IMG/VR virus record: IMGVR_UViG_3300042876_000027 | Coordinates: 5,768-69,767 of that record | Length of the DNA stretch: 64,000 nt | Direction: 5' to 3' (one strand) | DNA from: a virus | In this document: one piece after another, positions 59,680-62,158 of the stretch | Layout: the number at the start of each line of letters is the position of its first letter | Position numbering within the stretch: position 1 is the stretch's first letter | The notes under the pieces: generated by a model | Seen by the model: only the letters and a program-made list of their open reading frames with translations | Databases searched by the model: none | What the model was told of the DNA's origin: nothing | Made by a program: the position numbers and the translations under genes

Positions 59680-59707
59680 GACCTGGGCATGTCTACGTAA
59701 ACTGCCT
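59680..59707 (+). ncRNA. H-type pseudoknot motif, copy 1
   Basis: GAC ct GGGCA t GTC tacgtaaac TGCCT. Confidence 0.7.
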
Positions 59708-59944
59708 CCCTTCGGGGAGCGCCCCGATCGATCTGCGACACGCCGAAAAAAAGTTTTAAGAAATGCTTGACATTTCCCCCGAAATGCCCCATAATAGATG
59801 TATCAAGAAAAGAAGAAACGCAAGAAAAAATAAGTCAAAAAAACTTTGAGAAAATGCTTGACAACTCTTAGTTTTCTTGAGATAATAAATAGGTAAACAA
59901 ATCAAACAAATCCTAGCAATAGGTCTAGGTAGAAAGAAGCAAAA

Positions 59945-60100
59945 ATGGCAAATGTAATCGCCCCTACTGTTGGCTCACAGTTCGCAACCCAGAAGTCTGG
60001 CGTTGTCGGTATTGTTCAGGAAGTTGTCGAGAACAAGACAGGCTCGTTCCGAGTTCGTCTTGATGTAAACGGCAACCCTCGCTGGACTACTGTCAAGTAA
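59945..60100 (+). CDS. hypothetical protein (51 aa, SH3/KOW-like)
   Basis: SQFATQKSGVVG...RWTT; downstream of tandem TTGACA promoters. Confidence 0.6.
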   Translation: MANVIAPTVGSQFATQKSGVVGIVQEVVENKTGSFRVRLDVNGNPRWTTVK

Positions 60101-60119
60101 CTCGCAGGAGAATAAACTG

Positions 60120-60147
60120 CTTGCTGGGTATCAAGTAAAACTGCCCA
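60120..60147 (+). ncRNA. H-type pseudoknot motif, copy 2
   Basis: CTTG ct GGGTA t CAAG taaaac TGCCC. Confidence 0.7.
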
Positions 60148-60217
60148 CACTAAAATGTCAGACCCCTATGGCATAATAATAGAGTTCCAAACCCCAACAA
60201 AAAGAAAGAAGATACTA

Positions 60218-60664
60218 ATGGCTCGTTCATTGGCTGTAAAAGTTCCAACCGCATCACTAATTGCCCTACTAGAGAACAAGATTGCTGAAATCAAGTCTGC
60301 TATGGCTACCTACCCTGCTGATGTAAAGCAGTATGAGATTGACCAGAGCGAATACAAGAAGTCTCTTGTTGCTCTTACTATCAAGGCTCTTACCGACAAC
60401 CCAACTCTTGTTGGTGACTCGTATGACTCGCCTATTCGTGTTAGCCTAAACTATCACGGAAATGTTGATGTTACCCTCGACAAGAACGCACTCGGTTTTC
60501 CTGACGCACCTGTAAAGCCGATTGACCCAAACCAGAAGACCTACTTTGGTCGTGAGTATGTCTCGCAGTTGGAGATTTTGGAGAAGAACCTCAAGGTGCT
60601 TCGTATGACCCAACAGGAAGAGGTCAATGCCTCAACCTACTCGTCTGTAATGGACTTGCTATAA
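60218..60664 (+). CDS. hypothetical protein
   Basis: start refined to MARSL. Confidence 0.7.
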   Translation: MARSLAVKVPTASLIALLENKIAEIKSAMATYPADVKQYEIDQSEYKKSLVALTIKALTDNPTLVGDSYDSPIRVSLNYHGNVDVTLDKNALGFPDAPVKPIDPNQKTYFGREYVSQLEILEKNLKVLRMTQQEEVNASTYSSVMDLL

Positions 60665-60683
60665 ACCATAGGCTTACGCCTTT

Positions 60684-60711
60684 ACACCTGAGTAAGTGTC
60701 TAAACTGCTCA
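60684..60711 (+). ncRNA. H-type pseudoknot motif, copy 3
   Basis: ACAC ct GAGTA a GTGT ctaaac TGCTC. Confidence 0.7.
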
Positions 60712-60743
60712 ACACAAACTATCCCAACAAACAAAGGAAACAA

Positions 60744-60926
60744 ATGACTAAGAAGATTGTAATCGCAACTGAGAAGTGGAACACCAAGAATGGTGAGGTA
60801 TACAAGGCGGTAGTTCGAACCGCTGACGGAAAGTTCCTTGGTGCTACCAACCAGACCACGAACATTCCAGCAAAGCCAAAGGCTAAGCGTAAGCGTAGCC
60901 CTAGTCTAATCCTTGTTGGGAAGTAG
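60744..60926 (+). CDS. small basic protein
   Basis: SD AAAGGA; GKFLGATNQT. Confidence 0.65.
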   Translation: MTKKIVIATEKWNTKNGEVYKAVVRTADGKFLGATNQTTNIPAKPKAKRKRSPSLILVGK

Positions 60927-60931
60927 ACAAA

Positions 60932-60959
60932 ACAACCTGAGCAAGTTGTAAAACTGCTC
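60932..60959 (+). ncRNA. H-type pseudoknot motif, copy 4
   Basis: ACAAC ct GAGCA a GTTGT aaaac TGCTC. Confidence 0.7.
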
Positions 60960-61112
60960 CCCCTGCGGAGCGCCCGCCCAGGATCGATCTTCCCTGGTTT
61001 ACGAAGTGATTTACGACATGCCAAAATATTTTCCTAAATAGTCTTGACAATGTCGGATGGTTCTGTCATAATAGTCTTATCAGAAATCCCTACTAAAAGA
61101 AAGTTGAACCCT

Positions 61113-62126
61113 ATGGCTCACGAACTAGAAACCGTAAACGGACAGACCGCCTTTGCTTCGCTTCGCCAACCTGCTTGGCACGGTCTTGGCACCGTCTTTG
61201 AAGACGAGGTAAACACCTCTGAGATGTTGAAACTCGCACACCTAGACAACTGGAATGTTCGCCTAGAAGATGTCGCCATCCCTGAGAACTTTGAGTCTGA
61301 CAAGTCTTACTCTTTTGTTACTCGCACTAACCCATTTGACCGCACTAAGAATGATGTTCTTGGCGTTGTTGGTGAGCGTTATGTTCCGCTTCAGAACGAG
61401 GACTTGTTCTCATTTGGTGACAACCTGCTAGACGGTGGCGGTCGTTGGGAAACTGCTGGTTCTATTCGTGGTGGTCGTGTTGTGTTTGGCTCGATTGCTC
61501 TAACTGATTCGATTACCCTAGACCCTAACGGTCGTGCTGACAAGATTGACAACTACCTGCTAATCAACACCTCTCACGACGGTTCGATTGCTATTCAGGC
61601 AAGTATCACGCCTGTTCGTGTTGTTTGTGCTAACACTCTCAACCTTGCTCTGTCTGCTGTAAAGGGTAAGAAAGCCCCTAAGCAAACTTTCAAAATCCGT
61701 CACACTCAGACTGCTGAGGGTAAGATTGCCGTTGCTCGTGAGGCTCTAGGCTTGGCTAAGGTTTACCTAGATGAGTTTTCAACTATGGCTCAGGCTATGA
61801 TTGAAAAGGAAATCACTAAGTCGCAGTTTGACGAGATTGTGGCTCTTGCTTACCCTGCCCCTGAGAAAGACGCTAAGGGTTCATTCAAGAAGTATGACGC
61901 AAAGGTGGACTTGCTTCAGGCTATCTATGTAGGTGACTACAATAACACGATTGCTGGAACTGCTTGGGGTGCTTACAACGCATTGACCGAGCGTTTGGAC
62001 TGGTATCGTTCGGGTCGTGGTGGCTCTAACGAGTCTATCCTTGCTTCGGCTTCTGGTTTTGACCCAATGGTGAATGCTGAGAAGAACCGCCTGATGAAGG
62101 TCGTTCAGTCTGTCGTAATGGCGTAA
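61113..62126 (+). CDS. DUF932 family phage/plasmid protein
   Basis: PAWHGLG, ETAGSIRGG, NTSHDGS, TPVRVVCANTL, GTAWGAYNA. Confidence 0.88.
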   Translation: MAHELETVNGQTAFASLRQPAWHGLGTVFEDEVNTSEMLKLAHLDNWNVRLEDVAIPENFESDKSYSFVTRTNPFDRTKNDVLGVVGERYVPLQNEDLFSFGDNLLDGGGRWETAGSIRGGRVVFGSIALTDSITLDPNGRADKIDNYLLINTSHDGSIAIQASITPVRVVCANTLNLALSAVKGKKAPKQTFKIRHTQTAEGKIAVAREALGLAKVYLDEFSTMAQAMIEKEITKSQFDEIVALAYPAPEKDAKGSFKKYDAKVDLLQAIYVGDYNNTIAGTAWGAYNALTERLDWYRSGRGGSNESILASASGFDPMVNAEKNRLMKVVQSVVMA

Positions 62127-62129
62127 GCC

Positions 62130-62158
62130 ATAGACCTAGGCAAGTCTATAAACTGCCT
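62130..62158 (+). ncRNA. H-type pseudoknot motif, copy 5
   Basis: TAGAC ct AGGCA a GTCTA taaac TGCCT. Confidence 0.7.

Follow-up and report, generated by a model that had tools for sequence, protein, structure and literature searches.

A very small RNA fold stands just past the stop codon of each of five adjacent early genes in an uncultured phage; what does it do there? The question is raised by IMG/VR virus record IMGVR_UViG_3300042876_000027, a single contig of 69,767 bases. The stretch analysed here, called the window, comprises 64,000 nucleotides (nt), positions 5,768 to 69,767 of the record, and covers most of the genome; coordinates without a locus handle are those of the window. Five H-type pseudoknots of 26–28 bases each, numbered 1 to 5 from left to right, fit the arrangement S1-CT-S2-(A/T)-S1'-nAAAC-S2', where S1 and S2 stand for stem 1 and stem 2. 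A preliminary description made from the sequence alone had proposed all five with this architecture, and both the sequence and a strict structural scan agree with it. Its start positions are right for pseudoknots 1, 3 and 4 (59680, 60684 and 60932), whereas 60120 and 62130, given for pseudoknots 2 and 5, are one base off (60119 and 62131).

The strict scan of the whole 69.8-kb genome, run on both strands, returned these five copies only, all on the + strand. The same scan of 100 dinucleotide shuffles of the genome, again on both strands, gave a mean of 0.39 matches and a maximum of 2. As the strict pattern was defined after the copies had been seen, the stronger controls are those in relatives. 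We retrieved 45 related IMG/VR loci (354,053 bases) with the DUF932 protein encoded in the window. The strict scan of these loci found 108 copies on the gene strand, representing 70 distinct sequences, and none on the opposite strand. When the S2 pairing was left free, 108 candidates had 5/5 pairs and the others formed a background spread of 0–4; on the opposite strand no candidate reached five pairs. When S1 was left free, 108 candidates had 3/3 closing pairs against 10 with fewer. Therefore the pairing is not produced by the selection filter.

A covariance model (R1), the check proposed in the preliminary description, was built with S1 as its sole structure, and its alignment was fitted to S1 and not to S2. 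Searched against the genome, it separates the five window copies (34.3–42.0 bits) from the next match (14.0 bits); in the window together with the related loci it gave 144 matches, all on the gene (+) strand. Within the R1 alignment 98.2% of the cells pair, compared with 29–44% in a control with the partners slid, although the pairing counts lean that way because R1 was built from sequences chosen for pairing. S1 is 100% paired and all three of its closing pairs change on both sides, and four of the five pairs of S2 do so as well, as expected from the earlier claim that both stems covary. S2 position 4 is C-G in 63 cases, U-G in 31 and U-A in 6, while position 1 is G-C in 77, A-U in 12 and G-U in 11. 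The G-U pairs that had been said to favour the plus-strand RNA are real, and they indicate that the folded strand is the + strand RNA. The module is real: an H-type pseudoknot of the + strand RNA, with covariation in both stems.

Across the family, S1 has 3–6 base pairs (bp), loop 1 is CU, S2 has 5–6 bp, loop 2 is a single nucleotide and an A-rich loop 3 ends in AAAC. Loop 1 CU, the A-U pair that closes S2 and the AAAC are nearly invariant across very different phages. The preliminary description had called loops 1 and 3 invariant, which holds in the window; family-wide, loop 3 also reads AUAAC or ACAAC, and there is a subclass in which AAAAG-GCUC replaces AAAC-UGCUC and S2 has 4 bp (for example L002:3681, L023:1320, L006:887 and L033:1729). 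Four variants among the extra R1 matches, which had not been selected, carry an insertion in S2 that is compensated in S2', giving an S2 of 6 bp (L043:3809, L005:2401, L043:2329 and L032:3141). The copy at L039:2711 has a 9-nt insertion in loop 2. A weak model match at 51860–51921 (+ strand, 10.4 bits, E 0.47), in which 39 inserted nt part the two ends of the pseudoknot, could be an enlarged form of the element or a chance match. The smaller variant suggested at 60101–60120 was rejected as a family member: it recurs as an identical copy in two loci only (L001 and L014) and so is without variation, and a generic scan for its shape gave chance-level counts (3 plus and 0 minus in the 45 loci, 1 plus and 1 minus in the window).

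To which gene does a knot belong? All five window copies lie where they had been placed, just after stop codons, at the distances listed in Table 1. Successive copies are 439, 565, 248 and 1199 nt apart, with genes in between. In the related loci the distance from stop codon to inner stem has a median of 14 nt, with 102 of 131 within 5–24 nt, and the distance from knot to next open reading frame (ORF) has a median of 85 nt and a broad spread. Families were formed from the + strand ORFs of the 46 sources, and the pseudoknot cores of different loci were compared. Pairs of loci sharing only the upstream family had a core similarity 0.039 above background, a value reached by 0/300 label permutations; for pairs sharing only the downstream family the excess was 0.003, reached by 127/300. 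The presence of a knot behaves in the same way. Among relatives it follows 19 of 21 members of the 159-amino-acid (aa) family, 30/39 of the 51-aa family, 26/37 of the 148-aa family, 5/6 of the 60-aa family and 25/46 of the DUF932 family; a sixth family (75 aa) has it in 4/19. The other 36 + strand ORF families with at least six members comprise 35 that never have a knot behind them and one that has it in 1/26. A knot precedes the gene in 0/20 cases for the 159-aa family and in 3/37 for the 51-aa family. The knot belongs to the gene before it, since both its sequence and its presence track the upstream family and not the downstream one. The stop codons before the knots in the related loci are TAA in 87, TAG in 42 and TGA in 2 of 131, compared with TGA in 11 of 84 ORFs genome-wide; the copies are related and the difference may mean nothing.

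The family is far wider than this phage group, as it occurs in diverse IMG/VR contigs, in bacterial metagenome-assembled genomes (MAGs) and isolates, and in a cultured phage. A gapped pattern made of loop 1, the commonest S2, AAAC and S2', with S1 left unspecified, was searched in IMG/VR, and at least 98 matches in 80 loci were kept (the broad set). Among the 98 matches listed, the three closing pairs of S1 form in the usual register in 82, where chance would give about 5%, with 15 different triplets, and 69 matches share the same gap length; most of the remaining 16 do pair, but with loop 2 displaced by a single base. A fixed-gap pattern searched in bacterial genome contigs had S1 present in at least 44 of the 80 matches listed. 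These 44 come from MAGs of many phyla and from isolates such as Lacticaseibacillus hegangensis 73-4 and Ligilactobacillus salitolerans YK43, and the other 36 listed matches look like chance occurrences within genes. The cultured Synechococcus phage S-H35 has a copy of 41 bits, 11 nt past the stop codon of KNT63_gp010. The knot is found in actinophage-like phages of fresh water, in T4-like cyanophages and in regions of Lactobacillaceae isolates that resemble prophages. A BLAST match in Escherichia phage phiEcoM-GJ1 was not counted (23 bits, a 2-bp S1, inside an annotated coding sequence).

The element, which the preliminary description could not assign to a named family, has no family in Rfam either. 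Rfam 15 at the gathering score gave 0 matches in the window, and a permissive search of 59500–62400 (E up to 10) gave nine chance-level matches only (E 1.5–9.7), none of them a preQ1 riboswitch; the knot matches neither the preQ1-I riboswitch nor any other Rfam covariance model. In 34 related loci Rfam reported transfer RNAs (tRNAs) and one manA RNA only. Our literature search found no description of the phage motif, and the 8,495 candidate structured RNAs from IMG/VR in PMC10690425 may include an overlapping one.

Table 1 Pseudoknots of the window, the genes that they follow and neighbouring signals. Promoters are consensus matches, not mapped starts.
Feature	Position	Strand	Sequence or type	Context and basis
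Pseudoknot 1	59680–59707	+	GAC-CT-GGGCA-T-GTC-TACGTAAAC-TGCCT	33 nt past TAG of ORF 59167–59646; strict scan; R1 37.8 bits
Pseudoknot 2	60119–60146	+	(G)CTTG-CT-GGGTA-T-CAAG(T)-AAAAC-TGCCC	18–19 nt past TAA of 51-aa ORF 59945–60100; strict scan; R1 34.3 bits
Pseudoknot 3	60684–60710	+	ACAC-CT-GAGTA-A-GTGT-CTAAAC-TGCTC	19 nt past TAA of ORF 60218–60664; 33 nt before ATG at 60744; strict scan; R1 39.2 bits
Pseudoknot 4	60932–60959	+	ACAAC-CT-GAGCA-A-GTTGT-AAAAC-TGCTC	5 nt past TAG of ORF 60744–60926; strict scan; R1 42.0 bits
Pseudoknot 5	62131–62158	+	TAGAC-CT-AGGCA-A-GTCTA-TAAAC-TGCCT	4 nt past TAA of DUF932 gene 61113–62126; strict scan; R1 37.6 bits
Five pseudoknot-tagged genes	59167–62126	+		59167–59646 (159 aa), 59945–60100 (51 aa), 60218–60664 (148 aa), 60744–60926 (60 aa), 61113–62126 (DUF932, Pfam)
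GC hairpin	59706–59719	+	CTCCC-TTCG-GGGAG	next to pseudoknot 1, with 2 nt shared with its S2'
Two sigma-70-like promoter matches	59767–59795 and 59858–59886	+	11/12 each, consensus match	between pseudoknot 1 and next gene
Extended -10-like site	60169–60177	+	TGGCATAAT	23 nt past pseudoknot 2; spacer same as in promoter at 62266–62294; sequence reading
Sigma-70-like promoter match	61044–61072	+	11/12, consensus match	between pseudoknot 4 and DUF932 gene
Sigma-70-like promoter match	62266–62294	+	10/12 with TG, consensus match	between pseudoknot 5 and next gene

What would such a knot do behind a gene? The account that we favour, tentatively, is that it may act in cis as a roadblock in the 3' untranslated region (3' UTR) that defines and shields the 3' end of the upstream message. 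The knot would be transcribed as the start of the upstream gene's 3' UTR and would set and protect the message end mechanically. The cut further downstream could come about by several routes: transcription could run on into the next unit and the RNA then be trimmed, RNase P could cleave at a tRNA that follows, or, in some phages, a U-tract could terminate transcription. Whichever the route, decay from 3' to 5' would then halt at the knot, and a short and stable mRNA of gene size would remain; here, five early genes that are strongly promoted would be tagged in this way. Two roles named in the preliminary description, a block to exoribonucleases and a mark for processing sites, would be in keeping with this. 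The fold (by covariation), the strand, the anchoring to upstream stop codons and upstream gene families and the wide distribution are shown, while a block to nucleases and its direction are inferred.

Support for a role at the 3' end comes from knots placed just before sites that make RNA ends. A knot ends 4–27 nt upstream of 9 of the 10 tRNA genes in the related loci (two of the loci are near-duplicates), and among the listed loci of the broad set 12 of 41 tRNAs have one just upstream, 9 of the 12 being tRNA-Asp. A U-tract directly follows 17 of 111 broad-set copies and 7 of 411 control positions; the corresponding counts in the related loci are 4/112 and 4/442, and in the window 0/5. Behind four of the five window copies (knots 1, 2, 4 and 5) a promoter-like site precedes the next gene, so that the knot would be missing from the main transcript of this gene. 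In relatives, "atgtc...tataat" stretches resembling the extended -10-like site of knot 2 are found behind the pseudoknot. Repeated structured elements between early genes have a precedent in the RNase III-processed hairpins of phage T7 and in REP elements, which are thought to leave protected message 3' ends. Those are simple hairpins recognised or cut by RNase III, or chromosomal repeats, whereas the knot is a pseudoknot with conserved loops that is common across phyla.

Several observations weigh against this account. Pseudoknot 3 is directly followed by the next gene with no promoter between, which suits a shield for the downstream cistron equally well. Many copies begin 2–8 nt past the stop codon (the inner stem is 5–9 nt away in 43 of 131), and a terminating ribosome must therefore unfold them every time it arrives, a poor fit to a cap meant to last. 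Neither a U-tract nor a tRNA stands behind any of the five copies in the window. The signal from the upstream families is of modest size and the related loci are not independent. Finally, the contigs from the sole RNA-library run (a metatranscriptome) come from relatives that are 85–95% alike and cover a small share of the stretch, and from such contigs 5' and 3' ends, strand and level are not readable.

If the direction of the block is left aside, the knot is probably a structural roadblock that punctuates messages. A more specific form of this idea, which we regard as possible though less likely than not, would make it a protein-independent, direction-specific exoribonuclease stop, an exoribonuclease-resistant RNA (xrRNA) of the bacterial world with which long or read-through transcripts would be divided, in phages of many phyla, into messages that are stable and the size of a gene, and whose core design, and possibly ancestry, would be common with coremin of eukaryotic RNA viruses. 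If the proposed role is true, few cis-acting signals for mRNA stability in phages would be as small (26–28 nt) or as widespread as the knot, and phages would punctuate messages with pseudoknots too, beyond hairpins, tRNAs and ribozymes. Phage RNA biology would then be linked to the exoribonuclease-resistant RNAs of eukaryotic viruses, and a very short, portable mRNA end-protector would be available for synthetic biology.

The main rival reverses the direction. As a counterpart of viral xrRNAs, the knot would block machines moving 5' to 3' (RNase J, RNase E scanning from the 5' end, or ribosomes) and so protect or insulate the RNA downstream, be it a cistron, a tRNA precursor or a structured RNA; we consider this unlikely. 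One argument for it is the likeness to the plant-virus coremin and to its Watson–Crick variant xrRNA-WCC, which stall Xrn1 and scanning ribosomes according to PMC6546385, PMC10321173 and PMC10520033. In those texts coremin is a 3–4-bp hairpin with a YGAD (4 nt) or YGNNAD (6 nt) loop (PMC6546385, PMC10520033), followed by a conserved 10-nt spacer with an essential AACUA and by an obligatory second hairpin, hp2 (PMC6546385). The spacer reads G12 U13 U14 A15 A16 A17 C18 U19 A20 C21, of which A16–A20 are essential (PMC6546385); hp2 has at least 4 bp, stands directly after the spacer and is needed for Xrn1 stalling; and xrRNA-WCC has an S2 of 3 bp (PMC6546385, PMC10321173 and PMC10520033).

The phage knot shares with coremin and xrRNA-WCC a short hairpin on the 5' side, with loop bases that pair with a stretch directly 3' of an A-rich spacer, the letters UAAACU at the junction of loop 3 and S2', a pyrimidine as first loop base, a loop end of A plus A/U, a hairpin that often follows directly, and a total length below 45 nt. 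Its S1 of 3–6 bp also agrees with the 3–5 bp of the first coremin stem. The loop, in contrast, has 8 nt (CUGRGYAW, or C-U-(G/A)-R-N-Y-A-(A/U/C)) and agrees with the coremin consensus only in its first Y and final A-D. The base at the place of A20 is a paired G, and 0–9 nt lie 5' of AAAC. A GC hairpin abutting or overlapping S2', in the manner of hp2, was found behind 42 of the 111 distinct copies and at 117 of the 553 positions that served as control, and two of the five window copies passed the test, one of them weakly; for coremin such a hairpin is obligatory. S2 forms 5–6 Watson–Crick pairs in the knot, none in coremin and three in xrRNA-WCC. The knot occurs in DNA phages of bacteria and tracks the upstream gene, whereas coremin and xrRNA-WCC occur in plant and other RNA viruses. 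Coremin/xrRNA-WCC is the closest published analogue; as the phage knot departs from it in loop, spacer and hp2, it is at most a cousin of xrRNA-WCC and not a member.

Pseudoknot 3 and many copies in other phages lie 10–35 nt before a ribosome-binding site, and some knots abut a DUF2800 RNA (L074, L203 and L235) or precede a manA RNA (L038), all of which would suit a shield for what follows. Yet the sequence and presence of the knot follow the upstream gene, a promoter-like site separates four of the five window copies from the next gene, the spacing to the next start codon is broad, and a tRNA needs no 5' shield as RNase P makes its 5' end. As observations in their own right, the DUF2800 RNA begins 1–2 nt past the pseudoknot in its three loci (L074:285-445, L203:5432-5592 and L235:5051-5208), the manA RNA lies about 80 nt past a knot (L038:2715-2885), and a type III hammerhead is found about 200 nt upstream of another (L182:7541-7595). 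There is also a recurrent module of gene, pseudoknot and, 4–13 nt later, tRNA (L016:5061, L017:5064, L020:2052, L033:5054, L040:5051 and 12 broad-set loci), with tRNA-Asp(GTC) as the commonest tRNA and DUF932 as a frequent gene.

A rather improbable alternative is that the knot is bound by a conserved protein or by machinery of the host, such as the ribosome, RNA polymerase, or an Hfq-like or phage RNA-binding protein, which would regulate translation, termination or anti-termination of the tagged genes. The near-invariant loop 1 CU, S2-closing A-U pair and AAAC could reflect recognition and not folding alone, and one tagged gene (ORF 59945–60100) encodes a 51-aa protein with a weak, sub-threshold KOW-like match in Pfam. 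However, the invariant positions are those of tertiary contacts in other compact pseudoknots, a point that PMC10321173 also discusses. No protein co-occurs with the knot: in the fetched flanks of the 80 unrelated broad-set loci listed, a DUF932 relative was found in 15, the 51-aa protein in 8 and GP88 in 6. [quoted passage not shown] The suggestion that the element is a decoy for a host RNA-binding defence protein found no support in these data. The comparison with the type III antitoxin ToxI also fails. Both are small pseudoknotted RNAs in several copies, but ToxI is a tandem array of about 36-nt repeats beside toxN that ToxN cuts into units, while the knots are dispersed behind separate genes, 248–1199 nt apart with ORFs between, and nine neighbouring ORFs contained no ToxN-type or other nuclease family in Pfam.

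It is still less probable that the knot forms part of a transcription terminator with S2 as the terminator helix. We saw no canonical intrinsic terminator between the early units of the window, and the excess of U-tracts in the broad set would be in keeping with this function. In an intrinsic terminator, however, the helix is followed at once by a U-tract, as was found behind none of the five window copies, 4 of the 112 copies in relatives and 17 of the 111 in the broad set, and the flank past S2' is A/C-rich.

Very unlikely is mimicry of a tRNA acceptor stem, in which S2 would be preceded by U, would open with a G-C pair and would be followed by an ACC tail, and RNase P, the CCA-adding enzyme or some other enzyme acting on tRNA would recognise it. 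The bases after S2' in the related loci (n = 112) are A in 62 and C in 33, then C in 86, then C in 67, which resembles the N-C-C(-A) tail of tRNA-like structures; the 3' end leaves the outer end of the coaxial helix, as in pseudoknotted tRNA-like structures; and tRNA genes often neighbour the knots. The tail is not ACC in the broad set, where C stands at +2 in 53 and at +3 in 46 of the 113 copies listed; there is no equivalent of the T-arm; and neither ARAGORN nor Rfam calls anything tRNA-like at the knots. Among the 69 copies that lack a hairpin, 58 have A directly behind S2', and G is almost missing at the next positions. The simplest reading of this A would be a sixth S2 pair with the invariant U of loop 1, and selection would also act against a G able to pair with the C of loop 1, which would leave no loop.

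Recoding, as stop read-through or frameshifting, was rejected on spacing and short extensions. The architecture is that of small frameshifter pseudoknots: the luteovirus-type -1 frameshifting pseudoknots are compact H-type folds of about 28 nt in which a very short loop 1 begins with C, loop 2 is one base and an A-rich loop 3 runs along S1. The knot shares this compact layout (discussed in PMC10321173), the same source reports that coremin can stimulate -1 frameshifting, and about one third of the copies lie 5–9 nt behind the stop. Nevertheless, the spacing is variable (3 to more than 35 nt), each of the three stop codons is found before some knots, and the in-frame extensions in the window are 4, 8, 17, 17 and 37 codons long, two of which end before or inside the knot. 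The knot stands past a stop codon and not after a slippery site, in many copies per genome and in the mRNAs of DNA phages; all five window copies are 4–33 nt past a stop, and no slippery heptamer was seen before pseudoknots 4 and 5 when inspected by eye only.

The genome that carries the five knots has a long minus-strand block encoding a portal protein, a head protease, a capsid-like protein, a 2,790-aa tape-measure-type protein, tail proteins and a DnaB-like helicase. It is therefore a tailed phage. Numerous small + strand ORFs, including those of the GP88 and DUF932 proteins, occupy the right end (about 51.9–64 kb), and Pfam searches with nine ORFs neighbouring the pseudoknots returned only GP88, DUF932 and sub-threshold matches. 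The closest isolates by portal protein are Streptomyces cluster phages (49% identity); no pseudoknot copy was found in the left 20 kb of Streptomyces phage Bmoc. Sequencing runs with near-identical DNA are mostly labelled as freshwater metagenomes. We believe that the host may be a freshwater actinobacterium.

The flanks of the knots hold further recurrent features. (T)TTACGA boxes, often followed by "cacgccaaaa", occur in the window at 60998–61016 and 62224–62229 and in many loci 40–70 nt past the pseudoknot; they lie upstream of the sigma-70-like promoters of tagged genes and could be operator or activator sites. The palindrome GATCGATC stands after a "GAGCGCCC" stretch behind pseudoknots 1 and 4 (59726–59733 and 60982–60989), and may be part of a larger shared intergenic module. 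Contigs of the RNA library that cover 59953–60186, that is the 51-aa gene and pseudoknot 2, have a word depth of 50–94, locally 362, compared with 0–33 in neighbouring parts, which is no proof of transcription.

A second conserved RNA hairpin is located at 59641–59674 (+ strand), between the 159-aa gene and pseudoknot 1. Its 8-bp stem contains the TAG stop codon, and its 18-nt pyrimidine loop displays UCCUUUCU, the exact complement of AGAAAGGA, which occurs six times in the + strand early region (53.6–57.5 kb) and probably serves as a ribosome-binding site. When the sequences of relatives were folded singly, CCUUUC was kept in the loop in 13 of 15 while the stems differed. The hairpin may act as a sponge or mask of Shine-Dalgarno sequences, or as a mimic of the 3' end of 16S ribosomal RNA.

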